Positions 7,094 to 53,387 are shown, counted from the stretch's first letter. The stretch is DNA of 64,000 bases from Patellaria atrata CBS 101060 (GCA_010093705.1 MU006097.1:73905-137904), one strand, 5' to 3'. Made by a program: numbers and translations. Notes: generated from the sequence alone by a model not told the origin.

Positions 7094-7582
7094 CGGGTAG
7101 TGTACCGTGCTGAGCTGATATCCCTGGATACGATGGATGGAAATAGGGGGTATAGATATGATAGAACTAATAGTAATATCACGAGAGATACCCAAATGGC
7201 GGTATTCCATCTCAGATGAAGGAATGGGGTAAGGAGAATAGTCGATGTAACTCTGAGATGACCTAGCTGGAACTATGCAACAGGCGACGGACCCATAACC
7301 CATATTTGCTGGACCTGTATGAGCAGCGTAGATCAGCTATGGCGGGATGTCTACTTCGGAGTATCGTATCACGGGAGACAAGCAACGACGAGCCGGAATA
7401 TCCAGACACGCTATAACCACATAGCCCAAATCGCACGTTCGAGATCAAAAAGGCTGCTATTCCTATCCAGACGCAGCTATAACCCCCAGCCGAGAAAGAA
7501 ACAGAGAGAATAACCATCTCTATCGCTAAAGGCGCGCACATATTTCCCCCCCTCCCCTCCCCACTCCCTAAAAAAAAAAGAA

Positions 7583-7682
7583 NNNNNNNNNNNNNNNNNN
7601 NNNNNNNNNNNNNNNNNNNNNNNNNNNNNNNNNNNNNNNNNNNNNNNNNNNNNNNNNNNNNNNNNNNNNNNNNNNNNNNNNN
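7583..7682. other. assembly gap (100 N)
   Basis: Run of exactly 100 N following an A-tract. Confidence 0.99.
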
Positions 7683-9462: not shown

Positions 9463-11148
9463 GCTGCCAGCTTGTCTTCAAGTTTGCTTTGTCCGCAAGC
9501 GCATCTACCAGAATACGATATCCAAGATAGAGTGAGGGGGAGGATAGGCTTATCCAGCTTCTGGATTGTGCCCGTTGAGGATCAGGCTTGACGCAAGAAC
9601 AAGGCTGATGTTGAAAGGTATGGTAACCCTGCTGAGACAGAAGCGAAATTGGAAGAGGCGTCGACCGGTCACCGACGACCAGGTTGATAGTGGTTCCTGA
9701 GACTGGAGAGAAAGATTCGAGGGCAACTAGAGAGTCTCAAGCTGAACGGTATGATGTCTTTTGAAGTTGAAGGATCAGCGTGGGGTTCAAGCGCCGGGAT
9801 AGAGAGCGGTGCGCAGAGGTTGGAGGTTGGAGGTTGTGGCGGCGGCTGGAGATGGGGAAGGTAAGCTAAAGGTATGAAAGCCACAAAGGTTGTAACAAGT
9901 TTCGTTCGGGAGGTTTTGGTCTGAGAAGAGTTTTAAAGCTTCTCAATTTCTAAGACATGGTGGGAAACGTGGTGAAGAGTAGGATTTGTGTATAGGAGAG
10001 GGAAGATTTAAAAAGACGGTCGAAAAGGTTTCGTCGTTTTCCAAGTCGAGCGGTTGACGCCTTGTTCTGTCTTTTGCTCTATTGGCTTGGCTTGGAACTT
10101 TTCAGGTCTTCAGGAACGGCTTGCCGATCTCATCAACTACAGTAGAACTAAACTGCATGTAATCATATATTTGGGACTTGGGAATACCTCCGTAGATTGG
10201 ACAATACTATTAGAAAGCTAAGGGCCTTTTGCTGCGAGCTTTGAACCTGTGCCTCTCTACCGGTTCTCCTTGGTCACATATAGTCTCTATCGCTATCAAG
10301 CGCCCAAAGACCTTACTCGCTGACTCGAACTCCACCAACTGAAAGGGAACGAAATCCGAGCTTGCCTGTTGGTAGAATGCAGGATGCAGATGTAGATGCA
10401 GGACGCAAATGCACGAGTTCGGTTCCTTTTTTGAATAGCCATAATACCATACCACTACCTACGTCTATCAGAATATTCTTACAGCTGCAATGGCCGGAAT
10501 TAACTTTCTTCCCGTCGCCTGTCATACGTCTCAGGTAGCCTGTCAAACTCCTCTTTAGCTGTCAATCCTGGAGAGACCTTCACTTTTCCATGGATCGGAG
10601 TTAAGGTAGCATATCCTGTAATGTAGGTATTCTCCCTCGTGGGGTACGGTATCTTTCATTGCCAGACGAAGAACAATATCGGCATCGGCATCCTCGGCAC
10701 GTCGGTGATAGTTACCGGCCCGAGTCAATAGACTAATCTCGGCAACACCATTGTCAGGTTCTCCGTTTCTTTGGCTTCTACCTCCACCACCAACACCCCA
10801 TTATCCTCCCACATTCGTCGACACTTTCAGGCAGCTGATCAAAGGTCCCACATACCTCGGCCTCAGTCTGCAGCTTCGCGCGCACAAATCACACACGCAA
10901 ATCACACACGCAAACCCCCTCAATGGTTTTCAGGCCTCGGTACCGACGATCAAGCCTCTGACCACCGTACCGTTCCATCCGCTCACGGCGAACCTCAAAT
11001 TCCACCCGCTCAAGGCCCTTGACTCAGAACCCACTGGCTACATCCGCAACCCTCTTTCTATCCAGTCGATTCGCACTTCGGGTCCCTCATCCCACTCTCA
11101 AACCCAAACAAAACCGAACCACACCAAACATCCCCCCCTAAATAAACG

Positions 11149-11592
11149 ATGTCCACCCAGCAAAAGCTCCCCCTCGAATCCTCTTCCCTCCCCTCCACCA
11201 TCCCACCCACACACCCCCTCCCGCCCAACCTCCACACCTCCCTCCTCTCCGCCCTCCTAACCGCGCACTCGATCCCGGCAATCCAATCCGCGCTCCTGAC
11301 CTCGCTCTCGCAGACCGGCTGGACGACCAACATCCGTGCCTACATCCTCGAGCTGCTCCGCAGCGGCGAGTGCGGCAGTTACAACGAGCTGATGGCCAAG
11401 GTGCTCGAGGAGGCCGTTGGGAAGCAATCCGAGGACATGAATGGGAAGGAGGGGAGGGTTAACGGGGTCGGCAATGGAGAGGCAGAGGGAGAAACCGGGA
11501 TCAGGATACCGGAGAAGGCGGTGCAGGCGGGTATTAAGGCTGTCAGGCAGGAGTTGGAGAAGGTGTGTGATGTCACGTTTGGAGATGAGTGA
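11149..11592 (+). CDS. SUS1: Sus1/ENY2 transcription and mRNA export factor-like protein
   Basis: Single-exon 147 aa ORF with LSQTGWTTNIRAY...ELMAKV...IPEKAV pattern of the EnY2 family. Confidence 0.75.
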   Translation: MSTQQKLPLESSSLPSTIPPTHPLPPNLHTSLLSALLTAHSIPAIQSALLTSLSQTGWTTNIRAYILELLRSGECGSYNELMAKVLEEAVGKQSEDMNGKEGRVNGVGNGEAEGETGIRIPEKAVQAGIKAVRQELEKVCDVTFGDE

Positions 11593-12115
11593 TGTGCTCG
11601 TCTTGAGCACGGAGGTATAGGTATTTCGGTGAGGGCCGTTGGGCATTTTATGTCACGGAGTCTTGGCTTAAACGCAATTTTATGCTGGATATAGAGTCTG
11701 GGTAGCATTGGTGGCGTCTTGAGTGATATATGATGGGCTATTGCAAGAAAGGGGATTGGTATGTCATAGTTGAGATGCTATGTGTACATAATCGGAATGG
11801 ACATTGATTTGGTTGTACTCCATCATGATGCTATCACTCTCCGTTTCTGCGGATACACGTCTTATTACGATTTTTGCAACCCGAAGTTCACTGTTAGTTC
11901 AACCATTCGAGGAACTTGACGGGCACACGCAATTGGTGATTTTGAAAGTATGTGTTGATTTTCGTTATACACTTGGATGTAATGCAGCCGGTCCGCTTCG
12001 AAGATCAGATTGAAACCGTAAGTAAAGAGCAATCCGTGACATAAGCCCAGCATTTAACCAGCCACCCCTCTACACTTCTTCCGCATGCGCCGTTTTCCCC
12101 ATTCTGACGAGTGAT

Positions 12116-12584
12116 TTATCGGTGCTATTGACTAGTTAGCCACGCCGTTTCTCTGACCACAGGAAAATCATCACATCAAGCATTCGGTTTATGATAGCAG
12201 AAGGAGTAGAAAGTGTGCTGTCTATGTCCCGGGGGCGGGGGAAGGGGGGGGCAGATCGGGGGGCTCTCCATACCTTAACGAAACCGATATCCGTGCTCTT
12301 CTCTCTGAAGCATTGACGGCAGATATTGAGACCATACTTGCGGATGAGACCGGCCCTGTGCGTGCAGACGCGGCTATTTTTTAATATCAATCAGCAATCC
12401 GTTCCTTATCCGCCCAGTTCCTGAAGTCCTATAGCAATGCCCATCCTCATATAGCCCTTCAACAAAGCGTCCATAGTTTCTACAATGCATTTTAAGGGAA
12501 GGAGAAAGAAGGAGTGACATACCAGGCCCTGGAGCCCTTGCCATACGTCCTAGGCCGCGAATGCCAGACCGATTCGTGAGACAT
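12116..12584 (-). CDS. RPS29: 40S ribosomal protein S29 (uS14)
   Basis: Exons 12584-12523, 12373-12274, 12124-12116 give a 56 aa protein [56 protein letters not shown]. Confidence 0.97.
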
Positions 12585-12944
12585 GATTGCAGTTTATGGA
12601 GGTGTGTGAGACGTTTCTGTGGAATTCATCAGCATTTCCCACACCAACCCAACTCTGTTATGAGCGGAACATACGTCTGAGGAGGTATCTCGGTCTGTTG
12701 CGCGGTTCGTAGTCCAAAGAATCGATGTACGTCGTCCGTCGGCGAGGAAATTCAACGTTGGAGGTGCGGCGAAATAAGCGAAATGGCTTGGCACAAAGCT
12801 GATCCAATATTCCTCCCCCCCCCAAAAAAAGTTGGTCTGTGCGCCCGTGGGACATCACCTCGCGATTGTTTACGTCGGTGCAGCTCCTCAACCACCGACT
12901 CCCAGACAAACACCACCTTAAATCCCCCAAACTAAATAATAATA

Positions 12945-13342
12945 ATGGTGAGCTCTAACCTCCAGCCCATCCCACGTCTACTAAGAACCGCACCACACAG
13001 TCCCGCGACTCCTCCCACACCCACCTCCACCTGCACTCCCCCCACCACGCCGACCTCCTCGAAGACTTCACCTCCCCGCGCTCCGCCCTCTCACCCGAGG
13101 AAGTCTACGTGCCTCCGCACCACCAGCCCATCAACCCCGAGGATGAGGACGACGTCGTGCCGGACCAGCACGCCGCGTTCGGCATTGTGCGCGCGATGAA
13201 GGGTCCCGAGAGGGTCAGCTGGCGCGATCTCGGGCTGGAGGAGCTGCTGCGTAGAGGGCCGGGGGTTGCGGGCGCGGGTGGGTCTGCGCAAGTCGTATTG
13301 GCGGGGTTGGGGACGAAGGGGCCGAGGAGATTGCCTAGGTGA
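12945..13342 (+). CDS. APC13: anaphase-promoting complex subunit Apc13/Swm1-like
   Basis: ATG-only first coding exon, intron 12948-13000 (GTGAG...CAG), then SRDSSH...DLLEDF...YVPPHHQPINPEDEDDVVPDQHAAFGI...WRDLGL, matching fungal Apc13. Confidence 0.8.
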
Positions 13343-13850
13343 GGGGGTGGAGATGGATGTATAATGGGATGGGATGGGGTGGGTGGAGAACTATGATTGC
13401 GCTGAGCAGCATGATAGGGATATGGAAAGGAAGGCCAACATAATTGATTAGATGGAGGATATCCCATCATTTCAATGCTAAGGGATGCAGGATAGCCTGC
13501 AGTCCTTGTTCACAAAAGAGTTTTACTGTCCAAGAAGTGAGGGAACAAGAACTTAGAAGAGCCAGAGGTTCGAATAGACTGTAACATATAATCCGAACCA
13601 TCTATTTAAGGGAAAAAAAAGGGTGGTGCTATAGTGAACAAGATACCGGAAAGCGGTTTCCAGCAAATATACCCAGTGCCCAACCAACGGCCTCGCAACA
13701 CATCCCTCCCATGCCTACCCAATTCCCTCCACGCTATACAGTATATAATATATCTCACTCACAACCCTATAGACCAATCCTCCAATCGTCCCAGTCCAAG
13801 CCGTAAAACGCAACCCACAAACCACACAACCCATAAATCCCCTTAGAAAT

Positions 13851-14022
13851 AAAAAAAAAAAAAAAACAGTTCCCACGCCCCCCTAGAGGGGCGTAGTACA
13901 TCTGCTGCCCCACCGAGGGCCCGAAGATATGGGGGCAATTTGCCCCCTCGGGGATTCGACCCCGGGGCTGTCGTGTGCTGCCTAGCGGCTTTACCGCTAG
14001 GCTATCCCCGGGATATTGGGAA
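13851..14022 (-). ncRNA. putative Pol III structured ncRNA (tRNA-derived promoter, multi-hairpin)
   Basis: Minus strand: A box TAGCCTAGCGG 14004-13994; T-arm-like CGGGG-TCGAAT-CCCCG around 13964-13949; several perfect GC hairpins; ends in a T16 tract 13866-13851. Confidence 0.55.
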
Positions 14023-14829
14023 TGGCTGCCGAATTATTGTATTTACCGTTCGTGGTACGGGTGCCAAGATAGGCGTGTTTGGAGTGAATGGACGGGATGG
14101 GAAGGTTGTGGGTTTGTTGGTTCACGTACTCGAGGGCCTTACGTCCTTACTGTACACGGAGTTACATTCCTCACTCATTGTACACCACTCTTTTATTGTG
14201 ACGTCTATATGCATGAATTGAGGCTAGAGTTGACTATATTCTGCTACGAAGCAGTCGCTAAGCCAATGCGAGAATTATGGAAACGTTTAAAAGTCAGACG
14301 TCACTACATACCCCTATTTCCCTCACATCGTCAATCTCAATGCGGAAGACAGGATGGAGACGCCCAAGTGATGGATATAGAAGAAGGAGATGTTGGATAT
14401 ATCATGTGGTTCAAAAGAGTCCTGTATCTGTATAAAGGGCATGATATCAACCCAGAGGGATAGCTTCCGATTGAATCATTAAGAAGATAACGATGGCTTA
14501 ATACAGAGGGTCACTATTCATAAGGAGCTGTATATCACGAAAGGGACATGGTATAAGAGTCATAAGCTCGAATAGCTTCTATTATGAGATTCGGGATGTC
14601 CATGTAACAGACTACCCTCCAGCAATGATAGCGAGTGGGGGATGGGATAGGGGTATCTAGTAGCTATACCCAAAGCCCGACCAACAATCTAATGTATTAC
14701 TTCCTGCAATAGCCCTAGAAGAGCACTGCCGACGACTGTACGCTAAACACAAGTCGCTTCTCTATAGCCGTCGTACTCCATTCTTTCCAAGTGAGGTCTG
14801 TACTATACATGTGAACTCGACCAGTTCTA

Positions 14830-17273
14830 TTACTTTCTGCCGCGCCATAGTTGCTAAGGTGATGTCAGCTTAGAGCACTCCAAAAATTAGGAATAAGTAC
14901 ATACTTTGGCTTCACGCGCAGTATCTGTCTCGGCCTGGAAGTCGCGATAGAGACGCTCAATTTCTCCCGCTTTCATCATTTCCTCGACCACTTCATTGGC
15001 GTACTTACCTCGTTTCTTGGTGCTCCACCGTTCCCTTTCCACTAGTTTCTCAGCACTACAATATCCTTGGTTCTCTAGATAATCGACGATCCAATCGTTG
15101 AGATGGTAGCGCCAATGAGCCAAGGTATGTGCCGTAGTTGCGTTGTTCTTACAGAAGACACCAAGATTGTAAATCCTGTCCTCGCTAGGGATCACACGAC
15201 CCTTACTGTCATACTGCTCTCCCCTCCGAGCCGGTTCATCATCGGAGTCCTCCTCCGAGACCTCATCCAGTGTCTCGATATGGTACGGTGTTCCCTGAAA
15301 TTGGATTGTAAACGTTGCTGGATGACTCTGTCGACCGCACGCCTCACAACCCAATCCTTTAAATCCCCCAGAGAGTTCGTTTACAATGATCTCCGGACGA
15401 GCTTGTAGTGCATAGGTGAAGTCTTGCCTCCATACGGACGATGTAAATTTGGAACCGACAAGCCCCTTAACTTGATCGTCAAGCTTCTTAAAGGCTAGAT
15501 CATAGATTTCCGCGTCATGATCGAAAGCAGGGTTTATTTTCCTTTGCACGAACCACTGCACGGCGTACTTAAACAACCCTTTTGCCTTCATCGTGGCAAC
15601 ATTGGTGAATGCAAGAGGCATATCAACAGGCGCACCAAGGGTATCATCCTCATCAGAGACAATGAAGTCTTCGTCATTTTCATCCTCCTGGAACATATCT
15701 ACAGCCTTAGATCGGTGATGACGGATACGAGGGTCTTCATCCTCTTCAATCTCTTGGATGTCAGAATCTTCATCATCTGCCTCGCTGTCTTCTCCAAGAT
15801 CATCTTCAGAGTCGCTTTCTGTATCCCCTGTGCGTCTGGCGATCGGGCTTGATGGACCCTCCTTATGTATCGCTGCTGAGCGGCGTTGCTTCAAGCGTTC
15901 TAAAGCTTCTAGACGGGGATCCTTCTTAGTTCTTATCGTATCTAGGGATTCTATCAAACAGTTATTATTGCATTACAAAGTAAGTCACAAGGTGTCAGTA
16001 CTCGTAGGAGATTGTAGGAATTCTAGGTCCTCTGCTAAATCCTCTTGTTCTCGTCTACTCTTTTTCGATGGACTGCTAAAAGCAGGGACAAGTCTACGGC
16101 GATTTCGTGAGGGAGTAATTGGCACTTCGTCATCATCTTCGTCATTATCGTCCTCTTCCTCCCTCATAGCCTCTTTTCGTTCCCTCATTGTGCTTCGAGA
16201 TTTCCGGTTTTTCGAAATTATCTCAAGATCTTCAGAGGATTCATCTTCTGACATAGGCGCCTGCTTTCGATGTTTTGTCCTACGTCGAACGGGGGCTTCA
16301 TCTTCAGATTCCACCTCATCATCGTCAACAACGAAGGAATCCTTTTTTTCCTTGTCGTGCGGACCTTTTGGTTTCGAACGGATCTTCTTCGTTGAAGAAG
16401 AGATCAGGATCTCGTCGCCGCTTGTCTCGGGTTCGCCAATGTCAAGAGCGGAGGAATAGTCTACCGATTCTTCCGGATGTTTCTCAATTCTCACATCTTC
16501 ATCTTCGTCACTCAGATCAATATAAACAACCTTCTTGTTCGTAGCACGCTTTGAGCTCCGGGTCGTGCGAGTGGTAGGTGCAGACTGTTGACCACTTTTG
16601 CGGTCTGTGTTGCCGAAATTTCCGCCAGTAGATCTAAGTTGCAACCTAGTTCGAGTGAGAGGTACTACATCGTCCTTTTCACCCGATTCCGTTTCCGAAT
16701 CTTCCGCTATCTGCTTCGGTGTTGCCCCGGACCCAAACAACCCAACCTTGGAACGAGTGCCCCTTGGGGAAAACATAGCTTTTATCTGTGGGTGTGTCGG
16801 CGAAGAAGATGATCTTATGCTAGCAAAGCTGAAGTCGAGTTTACGTTGTGATTTCCGCCTTATATGTTCTCTGGTCGGTGCGTCACGGGGCGTGGGGTGA
16901 GGAGAACCGGGCAGGGCTGAGCTGTCCACCTCTTCGTCGGAAAACAACACGTGGGGTTGGGAAGATCGTGCTGGAGTGGGTGGTGCTTCATTCACTATAG
17001 ACACATCAGGGTGCGTTCGCGGGCATCAAGCAAACTAGACTCCGTTTGATATTTACCTTTGACACTCCTAGAGGACGCATTTCTTGTGAAACGGTCATCT
17101 TCATCGGCGAGCTTACGTCTCTTGAAAGGACTTGGAGATGTTTCAAAGGTCACAGTAGCAACACGATCTCTGATCTCAGCGGGGTAGGTGGAGGCTGATG
17201 GCGAAGACGATGGAAGCGGGGTGAAGTTGAGACGCGTTTGTCGTTTGCGCGTTGAACGAGTGGCTGACGTCAT
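14830..17273 (-). CDS. conserved protein with C-terminal DUF4211-like domain
   Basis: Spliced from ORFs 17273-, 17004- and 15957-, with last exon 14853-14830. Acidic/low-complexity N-terminus; C-terminal SSVWRQDF..ALQARP..CEACGRQSHPA..G.PY..LG.FC..H.L.HWRYHL motif. Confidence 0.75.
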
Positions 17274-24728: not shown

Positions 24729-26687
24729 ATCCATTCCTAGATATCCTATATTATTTCTCGAGCATAGAATGAAAATGATATATAATTCTGACCTCTGTTA
24801 CTCTCTAAATTTCTTTGTAGATCTTTCATTTAGGAGTATAGCTAAGTCGAGCCCTTTCTAGTTATAGGCACATAGTAACGTAGGAGAGTCTTGATGTAGC
24901 AACGATGTCAGACCAAGCAGGGAGAATTATCCATATATTGCTCTCTATCTAGTACAGATATAATTCCTGTTAGACATCTGCATCCCAACGTCTCTTCACC
25001 CGAATTATACCGAATCTTTTCTGATGGTATAATTTGGCTAAAACACAATGGATTTCTCCAGCCACATCAATTCTTTCCCTAGTCATTCCCTCTGGTTCCC
25101 AATCATCCCCAAACAAACCAGCAAATTCCTAAGCAAAAGATAGTCCCACCAAGTGTCCTTCTCCTCTTCGGGGCTCTAGGTGCGAACAGTGATTTTTTCA
25201 TCTCCCACGTGATTTTTATGGGAACTTGGGCGTCGAAGGACCAATCTAATTCCTCCTGATCGTTGCGTTTTTCCGTCCTACTCGCTCATCTACCCCTCGG
25301 AAATGGTTAGGAGAGTCCGAGGGGTCGAGTCCAATCTCTTTTCTCCACATCATTCAACACTCATGAGAACTTAACCTCTTCCACGCTGTCTTCCCATAGT
25401 GATGTGCTATCCCACCCGTACCATACCCAGCAGGAGCGCGCAAAGTTGCAGGATAACGCCACGGTAAACCGTCCACAAAGTTCAGACATACCAACTTCAC
25501 TTCACCAGTCCCATCCGCGAATCCCGAGATGCAGCTCCCCGGGCGTTTTGAGATTGGGAAAACGAGGGAGACGTCGGAGACGACCTGGGAGCAAACTTTA
25601 CGGAGCGTCTAGCATCCCTGTTGAAGGTATCTCCAGACTTGCGGGCCGTGCTTGACTTTGCTGTGGCCTTCGAGCGAGCCTGTCTTCGCGTGGGAGGAGA
25701 TTTGATAGTGGTACTTTCTCTCGCTTTACCCCGTGCTTCCCGTGCTCGCTCGGCGGATGATGCGTAGTTTGAGGAGAGCATGGCGCCGAAGACTAGGAGG
25801 AGTAGACTCATCTTTTTTTTTTTTTTTTTGACAAGTTTGTGTGTTTTTATCGTTTCGGTGGAGAAATAGTAACTATTTCCTATTAGTCAACGGACTCGTG
25901 AGAAAAGAGACCGGTAGAAGACCTTTTATATTTACCTTACCCAACACCTAGCTAGTTTCAGCTTTTAAACAGGACAGCGTCCGATCCAATCGAATCGTCG
26001 TCTACGCATAACATAGCATTTACTAGATCCATCGATGATGATTACACCGGTTCTGGCCCCCAAATAGTTACAGGGGTGATGGAGGGGGGCGGATAGTCTA
26101 GGAACCTGAACTTTTACTTTACCATACGATTTCCCATATTTCTTTTTATGTAACATTTGACTACTAGGATATGTTGCTGATTAAACGTCCGCGGAATCTT
26201 GGATGCAGGTGGTGAGTGCTTGGTCGAGCAGTACAGAGGTTTCTTGATTAATAAGGAGCGCTCTTCGTGCATATAAGGGCAAGTACACGCGGTCTTGGGG
26301 GCCAAATCCTTTAGTTGTCGGCTTCTATCTTGACTATAAATAGGTAGGTTGAGATCGGGACTAGTACGGAGTATATTCCTCACTGGCAGTTTGACACATT
26401 ATAATAATTAGGGGGTAAATATCACATTCATGCTGTAAAACCCCGCGTTGAAAACCACGAACAGCAACGCCGTCAGCGATGAAGCAATTGCCTGAATGGA
26501 TGTCTGATACTCGTACACTAAGTGTAATATACAAATGAGGAAAATCAACGGTGGACATAAAATCAGAACGGCGTGCGTGGGAATCACAAACAGCATCCAC
26601 CCATATTCCAACATCAAGAACGCTAAAATCGCTATGCATAAAAGTCAAGAAAGTAGATCCCTCGCCCACCTTTGCCGTTTCCTCAAC

Positions 26688-47112: not shown

Positions 47113-48480
47113 TATTGTTGATATCGAGGTGATGAGGTTTGGGGAGAGGGGATGATATCTAAGTCTACAGGGGTGTTTTTGGTGGGGTTATGTGGGTTTA
47201 AGCGATCTTCTAGAAGAGTGCGAAACACAACCTCAATCTATGGTAAGGTAGAATGGCACGGCAGTATTTGCGCAAGAGATAATTTACTACTGAGCTTAGA
47301 GGGAGTAGTGAGAAGGGTCAGTTGCAGTAGATTCGGGTTGAGAGATAAAAAGATTTGCTGTTTTTTCTTCTGTGGTAATCTAACATGAGCGATGACTCTT
47401 AACCTGAAGCTGATAGAGGCAATTCCCGTACGGTAGCAGACTAGGAGTTTGCGGGAGATGTCCAACTTTCTCCTTATCAACGTTCTCGCTCCTGTCTGCC
47501 GTGCTGACACTACTGGCCTTACCCGCGTTTTTCTTCCTCCTAGCTCCACAGCAAACGCTCAGTCTGCGCAGCTGTCTAAGCTCTCGTCTGACGTCTCTGA
47601 TATGTGAATGTGACCGTAGCATACAGAAAGATGATCCCCGCCGCGCGCGTGCCGGCGCGTGCCGAGATTGATTCCAAAACTCCTGACTCCTTCTCGTCAT
47701 AGCCCTCGATATTCAAATCGACAATCAAAAGAACATCTTCTAGCTTAGGGGGTTGAAAGTCCAGTGACACGATCGCAGAGGTTCCCTTTTTTTTTTTTTC
47801 GTCCGGCTTTAGTAGGTCTATCCTTCTAGGCATGCCCTGCCGGAGGAAAATGGGCGGATGTTGGGAGAGCTTTATACGCTCCCTTGGGTCTGTCACGCAA
47901 GGCTTTAAGACGCGTCATTGGATCGTGTGGATGCAATATTCGGGGGGTAGGGAGACCGGTTTGAAACCGAGGCGTCTCCATCCTGGATAGTTGTACTGAG
48001 TATAAGCTGGGCAGAGCTGCAAGCAACTGAATAAACATATAGAGAGGATAGGAGGGGGAATATGGGAGGGGGGTTATGGAGGAAGGGTTCACTGGCTGAT
48101 GGGTGGTGAAAAGGTGGGGCAGCCGGTTACGCCGGGGCGTCAACCTTACCCAACCTTCGGGGCGATCGGGACGTCACTGCGATCGGCACCAACGGGGGTG
48201 CCGTCTTGCACCAGCGCTCGAAGCGGCATGGGGTGAAAAGATTAACGATAGACGGGTGTTTATTGTTCAATGTTTATACATATGGCTTTCGAAATCGAAT
48301 AAGCTGATAGGGTTAGAATCGGCTTCTTGGAGCATTAGCAACGAGGCAACCAAGCCAGCCCGAAGGAGTCGAGGAGTTCGTGGGTATGCATGGCTTGGAA
48401 ATAGGATTCAATATGCAGGAAAATGTATGCAGAGTGGATGCAGGATTGAATGGAGATTGTTTTCGAAGAATGGATGGAGA
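47113..48480 (-). ncRNA. TER: candidate telomerase RNA (TER); 5' end approximate
   Basis: Template CUAACCCUA 48316-48308; boundary hairpin 48360-48321; enclosing helix 48378-48362/47693-47678; pseudoknot 47860-47796; terminal helix 48465-48444/47238-47221; AUAAGU 47112-47107 plus branch point 47010-47004. Confidence 0.85.
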
Positions 48481-51684: not shown

Positions 51685-53387
51685 TAGTGGGCCAGAGTTG
51701 ACGTTTTGTGGAGTCGTGATGTTAGTGAGGAGAGGGGACGGACGAAGAGATGGAGAAAACGGAATTCTGGGGTGATCGTCCGGAGGATTGCGGAGGTCTC
51801 CGTTAAGGTCGAATATCAACTACATTACATTACCTACGTTACCGAATTTTTCTATTCTCTTTTTTTTTTTTTTCTTCCTTTCTTTTTCGTTTTTCGTTCT
51901 TTCTTTGTCAGGTTCATCTTTTTCCTTTCTGTCATTGGAGTTGTGGCAGCCGGTTACACACTGCTCTCGGTTCGCAACGTTTCCCATACCCTTCTTCGTT
52001 AGCAACCTTGATGGATAGATTCACGACTGCAAAGTCCACTCCACGATAGTAGATTGCGCGGTAGTTTATCTTCGACGATTGCGGCGCCGGTTTTTTTTCT
52101 TGGAGTAAGAGCATTTGCATATTTTTCAACCTGCTCGTAAGGTACTCTTTTTTGGATACGTTGGTACGCCTTGGGAACGAACTTTGAGGACTTTATATCT
52201 TAGCTGCGCGAGCGTTACGATCATGATTATGAGGGGTTTAGGGTGTATTTTAGATGGCATTGAGGAGGTATGACTGTCACTTTTGGGAGGTATGGGAATG
52301 GGATGGGATGAGATGAAAAGATGAAGGAGACTTGTTGAGTTAGGTAGAGGTTGTAGTTGAATAAGACTTGGATCTATCTACAATCTATCTATCCATAACT
52401 TATCTATACTGTTATAACTATTTACTCCCTGCCCCCCTCCTCCCCGACAATCATCAGACTCCTTCAACTCTCAGTGCGCCCTTACAACCGTCTCCCTACC
52501 TAATCTCAAGATTAAGCTCTGGAGTCAAAACTTCCGCACCCCTTCCCCGTCTAGCTTTACGTCCTTGTCTTTATCGTTGGAATGGGAAAACTGGCGAACT
52601 AGTCAGAACGGTAACTGTACGAAAGGAGAGAATTGTACAGTACGATACAAGGGCACTGTAATAGGGTGGGAGTCAGCGGATATGCGGGGCGTACAGGATG
52701 TGATGGATAGCATAAAAGGTAGGAATCGAGTACAGTAAGACTGAGTATACCTCACTCTCCAAAATGGGGACGGGATGGATCTCCAAATTGTCCCCTATCG
52801 TATAAATCATGGAAACAGTGAAGAATGAGGGCAACCACAAAACCCGCGCGATTGTACCTCAATCGCCCGAATCACCCAAGAGCTACACAAATAACTGAGG
52901 GATGCAAAATCGCCAAGCTCCCTTTACCTATAATCACAACTCGGATATCCAAACATCCATGTGGAAAGACACTTGAGCGATGTGACTTCGCTCCCCTCCT
53001 TCCCATCTCTTCAACTCGAGGTTTTACGTGTGCTGGGTGTTGCTTCTACTGCTTTATATATTTAAAATAAGGTGGTTGTATGGGAAGTGAGAATTGTGAT
53101 TCAAGACAAATGGGGCGAGATTAATGGAGATCTAATTTGATATCATGCAATTTAGGTATAGCAAGCGCATAGTAAGTAGGGAATAACCACCGTCTCAACT
53201 CCAATTCTTATGATTTCATGAGGACTCCATACATATTTAGTGTGAAGAGTCACAAACAATCATCGAATAACTTAGAGGAAACTTTTTGGAGATGGTCGCA
53301 TGAAACACGTATAATGAAACCTCAAAACGGCGTATGACGATACTGGAGAACACGTATATAATCTGCTCTAGGAACGGTGAAAAGAGC

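Follow-up and report, generated by a model that had tools for sequence, protein, structure and literature searches.

A candidate Pol III type-2 unit of a small dispersed family between two convergent genes of Patellaria atrata

The small RNAs 4.5SH, 4.5SI and BC1 are lineage-restricted, measure ~100-150 nt and are made from multiple gene copies with an internal tRNA-type promoter and a T-run terminator; their stability is tied to pairing of the RNA ends. In the TMERs of the gammaherpesvirus MHV68, a single Pol III transcript joins a tRNA-like domain, complete with A and B boxes, to downstream hairpins and closes with a T-run terminator. For filamentous fungi we know of very few Pol III transcripts besides tRNA, 5S, U6, 7SL and RNase P RNA, and fungal SINEs are, to our knowledge, poorly documented. 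The rodent 4.5S RNAs are reported to be SINE-related stand-alone Pol III genes (PMC3440375). In the Au-like SINEs of plants, box A occupies 13-24 and box B 57-67; a 3' hairpin at 127-144 is preserved by compensatory changes, the tail is a T-stretch, and the 3' end is common to RTE-clade LINEs, which mobilise them (PMC6007223). AfuSINE2 of Aspergillus fumigatus is characterised as low-copy and 140-493 bp long, with degenerate A and B boxes and non-cloverleaf heads (PMC5063351).

Here we describe an element of ~170 bases from Patellaria atrata CBS 101060. It lies in the window, by which we mean the whole 64-kb stretch of DNA that was analysed, a gene-dense region whose housekeeping genes have short introns and include RPS29, APC13, DNA polymerase alpha subunit B, G-beta and a P4-ATPase. 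The element is GC-rich and sits in a 1.5-kb spacer separating two convergent genes, APC13 (plus strand, frame end 13342) and a DUF4211 gene (minus strand, frame end near 14887). An earlier reading made without database searches (the sequence-only reading) had called it a GC island within lower-GC intergenic DNA, and this is borne out by a GC content of 64.1% in 13867-14022 vs 44.6% and 44.8% in the flanks. The three open frames that cross it have no match in Pfam, and a search of a protein collection with an open frame crossing it gave no candidate relative. On the far side of APC13, RPS29 (minus strand, 12130-12950, short introns) is divergent from it, the two having a common promoter region of ~350 nt.

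All 13 sequence motifs named in the sequence-only reading were found on the minus strand, each where it had been placed. They are given first in the following list, as recovered by the motif check, followed by the promoter-like signals and the T run:

14004-13988, minus strand: A box/D-loop-like TAGCCTAGCGGTAAAGC
14002-13994 and 13988-13980, minus strand: the two arms of hairpin 1, GCCTAGCGG and CCGCTAGGC
14012-14006 and 13967-13961, minus strand: CCCGGGG and CCCCGGG
13964-13949, minus strand: CGGGG-TCGAAT-CCCCG
13947-13931, minus strand: GGGGGCAAATTGCCCCC
13951-13945 and 13919-13913, minus strand: CCGAGGG and CCCTCGG
13894-13888 and 13881-13875, minus strand: ACGCCCC and GGGGCGT
14022-14017 and 13875-13870, minus strand: TTCCCA and TGGGAA
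13994..14004, minus strand: A box TAGCCTAGCGG, with one mismatch against TRGCNNAGTGG
13962-13952, minus strand: B box GGGTCGAATCC, with one substitution against the consensus GGTTCGANTCC, inside the T-arm-like hairpin
14032..14045, minus strand: TATA-like, AT-rich tract TAAATACAATAATT that precedes the A box by 28-41 nt, read from the sequence as a possible TFIIIB/TBP site
14012..14024, minus strand: putative initiation zone, placed by tRNA-gene geometry 8-20 nt ahead of the A box
13851..13866, minus strand: T16 run, presumed Pol III terminator, its first T 96 nt downstream of the B box start

tRNA-type A and B boxes, a non-cloverleaf multi-hairpin body and a downstream T run make up the layout of a Pol III type-2 unit, in agreement with what had been proposed. 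The B box starts 42 nt downstream of the A box start and has a G where the conserved T54 stands. It does depart from the consensus, as had been said, but one substitution suffices to describe the departure and a deletion is not needed. An A box (at most one mismatch) followed 25-90 nt downstream by a B box (at most two mismatches) occurs once in the window, at the element, where 200 first-order Markov simulations lead one to expect 0.56 per window by chance. When a run of six or more T within 200 nt of the B box is added, the combination appears in 5 of the 200 simulated windows (0.025 per window). By themselves, the promoter motifs are weaker evidence than the fold described below. Transcription of tRNA-type Pol III genes usually starts 8-20 nt upstream of the A box, and TTCCCA (14022-14017) may therefore be absent from the RNA. 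Fungal Pol III terminators are usually far shorter than T16. The window contains ten T or A runs of at least eight, and because long runs are so common in it, the adjacency of T16 to the element could be partly coincidental.

That the element is transcribed, where transcription would begin and end, how the RNA would fold in the cell and what role, if any, it would have are matters of inference; the proposed course of events is as follows. TFIIIC would bind the A box (14004-13994) and the B box (13962-13952, with the G at the T54 position), and TFIIIB would sit on the AT-rich stretch 14045-14032. Pol III would start at ~14012-14024 on the minus strand and stop in T16 (13866-13851), giving an RNA of ~150-165 nt with an oligo-U end. 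This RNA is predicted to fold as a tRNA-like four-way junction in which a 9-bp hairpin replaces the D and anticodon arms; the acceptor-like stem I would enclose that hairpin, a T-arm-like hairpin and a 7-bp hairpin, and two 3' hairpins would come after it.

The 180-nt minus-strand RNA has a minimum free energy (MFE) of -89.8 kcal/mol, vs -67.2 +/- 4.4 kcal/mol for 200 dinucleotide shuffles (z = -5.15), none of which (0/200) folds as well. Pair probabilities were computed for transcripts that start at 14024, 14022 or 14012 and end five U into the T run. The predicted helices, which are without any mismatch in the present copy (stem I, hairpin 1, T-like arm and hairpins 3-5), are:

14003..14011, minus strand: 5' strand of the acceptor-like stem I, CCGGGGAUA, pairing with 13921-13929
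13921..13929, minus strand: 3' strand of stem I, UAUCUUCGG, closing the predicted four-way junction
13980..14002, minus strand: hairpin 1, 9 bp, GCCUAGCGG/CCGCUAGGC with loop UAAAG, containing the A box (pair p 1.00)
13949..13964, minus strand: T-arm-like hairpin CGGGG-UCGAAU-CCCCG (pair p 0.89-0.92)
13931..13947, minus strand: hairpin 3, GGGGGCA-AAU-UGCCCCC, 7 bp (pair p 0.66-1.00)
13907..13920, minus strand: hairpin 4, GCCCU-CGGU-GGGGC (p 0.35-0.91, varying with the start)
13873..13896, minus strand: hairpin 5, CUACGCCCCU-CUAG-GGGGGCGUGG, 10 bp, adjoining the terminator (p 0.82-1.00)

According to this model the junction would consist of stem I around hairpin 1, the T-like arm and hairpin 3, with hairpins 4 and 5 as a 3' extension. 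Hairpin 1, the T-arm-like hairpin, hairpin 3 and hairpin 5 are essentially fixed in the predicted ensemble. The nine base pairs of stem I (14011-14003/13929-13921) reach p ~0.71 from the 14022 start and 0.88-1.0 from the 14012 start, and this prediction contradicts the earlier statement that no acceptor stem can form. The proposal of a switchable fold fares no better, as the alternative helices do not exceed p 0.11 in the ensemble: CCCGGGG/CCCCGGG has p 0.08, CCGAGGG/CCCTCGG 0.00 and the terminal TTCCCA/TGGGAA helix 0.04-0.11. A sequence so rich in G and C tracts can be expected to pair promiscuously, and the competing pairings are for this reason not evidence of a switch.

The view that the element is not a tRNA is upheld. 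ARAGORN finds no tRNA or tmRNA gene in the window (1-64000), and Rfam 15 finds no family, tRNA included, at gathering score. With E up to 10, Rfam gives only 12-18-bit matches to unrelated families on 13500-14400, and none to tRNA, vault, Y, 7SL, RNase P/MRP or ribozymes; the best sub-threshold scores, 18 bits with gathering scores of at least 40, belong to unrelated bacterial sRNAs. What the element has in common with tRNA genes is the spacing of the A and B boxes (42 nt, within the range of 30-60 nt), an acceptor-like stem of 7-9 bp and a T-arm-like hairpin of 5 bp. Moreover, its D-loop-like GCCUAGCGGUAAAGC presumably resembles the D regions of class II (Leu/Ser) tRNAs. Unlike a tRNA, it has no D stem. 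Where an anticodon arm would carry a loop of 7 nt, the predicted fold has a 9-bp hairpin whose loop measures 3-5 nt; the T loop has 6 nt, and the T arm is followed by an extra hairpin before the 3' acceptor strand is reached.

Searches in metagenome, prokaryote genome and viral collections gave no homologue. In metagenomes, a pattern that combined the B box with hairpin 1 returned 58 loci, all of them chance matches: in blastn they align to the element over at most 21 nt, apart from one alignment of 57 nt at 72%, all with E of at least 0.13, and ARAGORN detects no tRNA in the 34 of the 58 loci on which it was run. A core pattern has no match in prokaryote genome contigs or in viral contigs. 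Five motif strings taken from the element or its paralogues have no match in the searchable full-text literature, and the element's motifs do not occur in the text or in one supplement of the AfuSINE paper (PMC5063351).

Of the described systems, the Au-like SINEs come closest in layout. Counted from 14022, the element has its A box at ~19-29, its B box at ~61-71, a hairpin at ~127-150 and the T run from ~157. Like these SINEs, it measures ~150-170 nt and has a tRNA-unrelated body, a 3' hairpin and a T-stretch instead of poly(A), the comparison being one of layout and not of sequence (PMC6007223). The plant families are rich in copies, have target-site duplications that begin with T and share their 3' end with a LINE (PMC6007223), whereas the element has few copies, no duplication and no partner LINE among the window frames scanned; its T run is also much longer and its body more GC-rich and more tightly folded. 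AfuSINE2 resembles the element in its filamentous ascomycete host, its low copy number, its degenerate A and B boxes and its non-cloverleaf head, but is reported with target-site duplications of 4-14 bp (PMC5063351), and the element is without one. The RNAs 4.5SH, 4.5SI and BC1 differ in being mammalian and in having demonstrated transcripts and known SINE relatives, whereas the element is known from sequence alone. Finally, the TMERs, with which it was compared by description, are viral and have hairpins of pre-miRNA size, as opposed to 5 and 10 bp for the element's 3' hairpins; the likeness suggests that RNase P and tRNase Z could cut these 3' hairpins free.

Paralogues were found in two public runs of one sample (X1 and X2), contigs of which span 11000-17000. 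These contigs cover the introns and spacers of 11000-17000 without joints, which identifies the runs as DNA. No RNA run was among those listed for 13700-14200, an outcome that speaks neither for nor against transcription. One contig of 10,483 letters (X1) and one of 21,276 letters (X2) match the window at 13896-13967 only, with six differing letters and one base missing at 13924, and a further paralogue piece matches 13929-13973. In X1, 3 of the 16 aligned records are 90-95% alike. The loose ends require at least three distinct foreign contigs, two of them ending at 13967 and one at 13973. Paralogue depth is close to single-copy depth (453.8 vs 449.3 and 319.2 vs 302.4). From the distinct contigs and their single-copy depth it follows that at least three further distinct single-copy loci carry a diverged copy, a count that is a lower bound, as pieces below 90% likeness were not captured. 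Within the 64-kb window there is only the one copy. The part that the copies share is:

13896..13973, minus strand: core, at least 90% common to copies at other loci, from the contig matches

Run X2 also contains low-depth variant contigs over 13277-13410, the 3' end of the APC13 frame, with 13307 T>G and 13313 A>G; these could be minor alleles, strain variation or errors.

Divergence among the copies is uneven, amounting to ~10% in the core 13896-13967 vs about one third of the letters in the adjoining 30 nt on each side, the latter counted by eye. Outside the core the paralogues are represented by fragments of 16-30 letters, which were compared by eye, and their homology can be recognised past the clipped ends as far as the base beside the T run and into hairpin 1. 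In hairpin 1, the consensus of two paralogues has ...GUGG as its 5' arm and CCACUAGGC as its 3' arm (by eye). It contains a paired change, 13996 C to U together with 13986 G to A, which turns a C-G pair into a U-A pair, and the visible end of its A box is the canonical GTGG. The fragment is a consensus of two contigs agreeing at 0.88, so that the two changes could stem from different copies; both are CpG transitions, which are frequent in any case. A third paralogue fragment from the hairpin 1 region reads CCACUGGGC. Downstream of hairpin 1, the copies can hardly be aligned across the 12-nt linker, and the 3' strand of stem I lacks one U (13924) in the paralogues. Hairpin 4 reads GCCCC-AGUU-GGGGC in one paralogue vs GCCCU-CGGU-GGGGC here, and with this the CCCUCGG partner is gone. 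One paralogue is 6 nt shorter at hairpin 5, where a smaller hairpin can still be drawn (by eye), and the last 14 nt ahead of the T run contain one differing position. Read by eye in this way, the hairpins appear to be kept in the visible paralogue fragments. The CGG-N5-CCG of hairpin 1 was also considered as a site for a zinc-cluster transcription factor and set aside, the paralogues having TGG...CCA there.

Taking the readings as an RNA gene and as a SINE together, we consider the element probably to be a tRNA-derived Pol III type-2 unit of a small dispersed family. It would then belong to a family of small RNA genes not described before, or else be a short retroposon. In the first case it could represent a hitherto unknown small RNA of fungi that bears a tRNA-like handle, and in the second a clean example of a T-tailed SINE source gene in a compact genome, where gene and retroposon are hard to separate. 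The single reading that seems most likely to us, although we hold it tentatively, is that of a stand-alone structured small-RNA gene (or source gene) and not a freshly inserted retroposon. The SINE reading fits the layout equally well, and we lean towards the gene because no helix has a mismatch despite at least 10% divergence from the nearest relatives, because no target-site duplication is present, because divergence among the copies is strongly uneven and because the hairpins are kept in the visible paralogue fragments. Intact helices, this degree of divergence and the missing duplication together fit constraint better than a young insertion.

A more far-reaching form of the gene reading, which we regard as doubtful, would make the element a member of a previously undescribed, lineage-restricted fungal family of Pol III small RNAs, kept by selection on structure and present in several gene copies. 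Equally doubtful is its further component that RNase P and tRNase Z recognise the four-way-junction domain, a 3' hairpin RNA being released or carried along. With the same reserve, one might see in the family what corresponds in cells to the viral tRNA-like/hairpin units, or to the 4.5S/BC1-type RNAs.

A possible alternative, to which we give less weight than to the RNA gene, is that the element is a copy of a T-tailed, tRNA-derived SINE of the LINE-3'-hairpin type, either an old insertion or a source copy. The source copies might be transcribed by Pol III, and a partner non-LTR retrotransposon might recognise the 3' hairpin and tail and reverse-transcribe the RNA. This would account for dispersed copies in unique contexts of the same genome and for an internal promoter of tRNA type within the opening 70 nt, followed by a tRNA-unrelated body and a 3' hairpin directly before the T run. 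Both the layout and the T tail have parallels in the Au-like SINEs (PMC6007223), although Pol III terminators are T runs just as well, and low-copy, tRNA-related SINE-like sequences with non-cloverleaf heads are reported from Aspergillus fumigatus (PMC5063351). The sequence-only reading had named many dispersed copies with target-site duplications as the mark of a SINE or MITE. Dispersed copies do exist, at three or more other loci, but they amount to a handful, and no target-site duplication of at least 7 nt with at most one mismatch was found in comparing 14080-14005 with 13860-13800. The only exact 6-mer match, GGGGAT, lies partly within the element and is at chance level (~2 expected). Although core identity to the nearest copies is no more than ~90%, every helix here is intact. 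No reverse transcriptase, endonuclease or transposase domain was detected in the 42 frames searched of the window's 62 frames of at least 130 aa, and nothing else in the window resembles the element's 3' part. A tail of T16 would, moreover, exceed the oligo-U expected on a Pol III transcript.

We judge it unlikely that the element is a silent relic, that is, a decayed tRNA-derived pseudogene or a dead repeat copy whose hairpins come from its ancestry or from local palindrome formation; as such it would be ordinary. A relic would explain why the B box is off consensus at the conserved T, why there is neither a cloverleaf nor an Rfam match, and why the metagenome, prokaryote genome and viral collections hold no homologue, and the promoter motifs alone are near chance, with 0.56 expected per window. 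Against decay stand helices that are free of mismatches despite the divergence from the paralogues, a fold at z = -5.15, hairpins kept in the paralogue fragments, one of them through a two-sided change, and the canonical A box in the visible part of the paralogue consensus.

Still less probable, in our view, is an element that acts or arose at the DNA level, as part of a longer repeat (for example the interior of old terminal repeats), as a MITE, or as an untranscribed, TFIIIC-bound boundary of convergent genes. The position between the 3' ends of the convergent APC13 and DUF4211 genes would suit a boundary. Weak direct repeats of ~440 nt (13352-13793 and 14370-14789, offset by ~1,000 nt) flank the element; their local alignment score is 86, vs 39.7 +/- 8.6 (maximum 71) for 143 natural control segments, and the best-matching blocks measure 41 nt (76% identity) and 24 nt (79%). 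An old duplication of 3'-UTR or spacer DNA, or very decayed terminal repeats, may account for them. The family could also be part of a longer repeat, given that only paralogue fragments of 16-30 letters are to hand beyond the core, but the paralogue pieces do not reach into the flanks at 90% or more. The flanking repeats are ~55-60% alike by eye while the element is intact, so that the two are not of the same age. LTR-like repeats were rejected as the explanation of the element for this far greater decay and because no polypurine tract lies beside the presumed 3' repeat. Likewise, there are no terminal inverted repeats past the 6-nt TTCCCA/TGGGAA and no target-site duplication within the scope given above, and these features of a MITE are thus missing.

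A conformational-switch or self-cleaving RNA with alternating, mutually exclusive helices seems to us highly improbable, for even though the forced alternatives cost 2-5 kcal/mol (-84.2, -81.1 and -84.1 vs an MFE of -86.2), their helices have the low ensemble probabilities listed above, the replacement of CCCUCGG in one paralogue cannot pair with CCGAGGG while the local hairpin is kept (by eye), and Rfam at E up to 10 gives no match to a ribozyme or riboswitch family.

Two other places in the window were considered as Pol III units. A related unit at ~47725-47799 (plus strand) has an A-box-like TAGCTTAGGGG and a T13 run ~55 nt later; it was rejected, being unstructured (z = 0.08) and unmatched in Rfam at E up to 1, and is possibly the other "tRNA-promoter" candidate of the sequence-only reading. 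The T17 run at 25813-25829 (plus strand) was rejected as a Pol III terminator, as it lies directly upstream of a minus-strand ATG and is a poly(dA:dT) tract at a gene start. That ATG opens a signal-peptide-like frame, MSLLLLVFGAMLS... Further long runs in the window are T14 at 51860, T13 at 47787 and A10 at 7570 and 50051, and a 100-N assembly gap (7583-7682) opens three bases past an A10 run.
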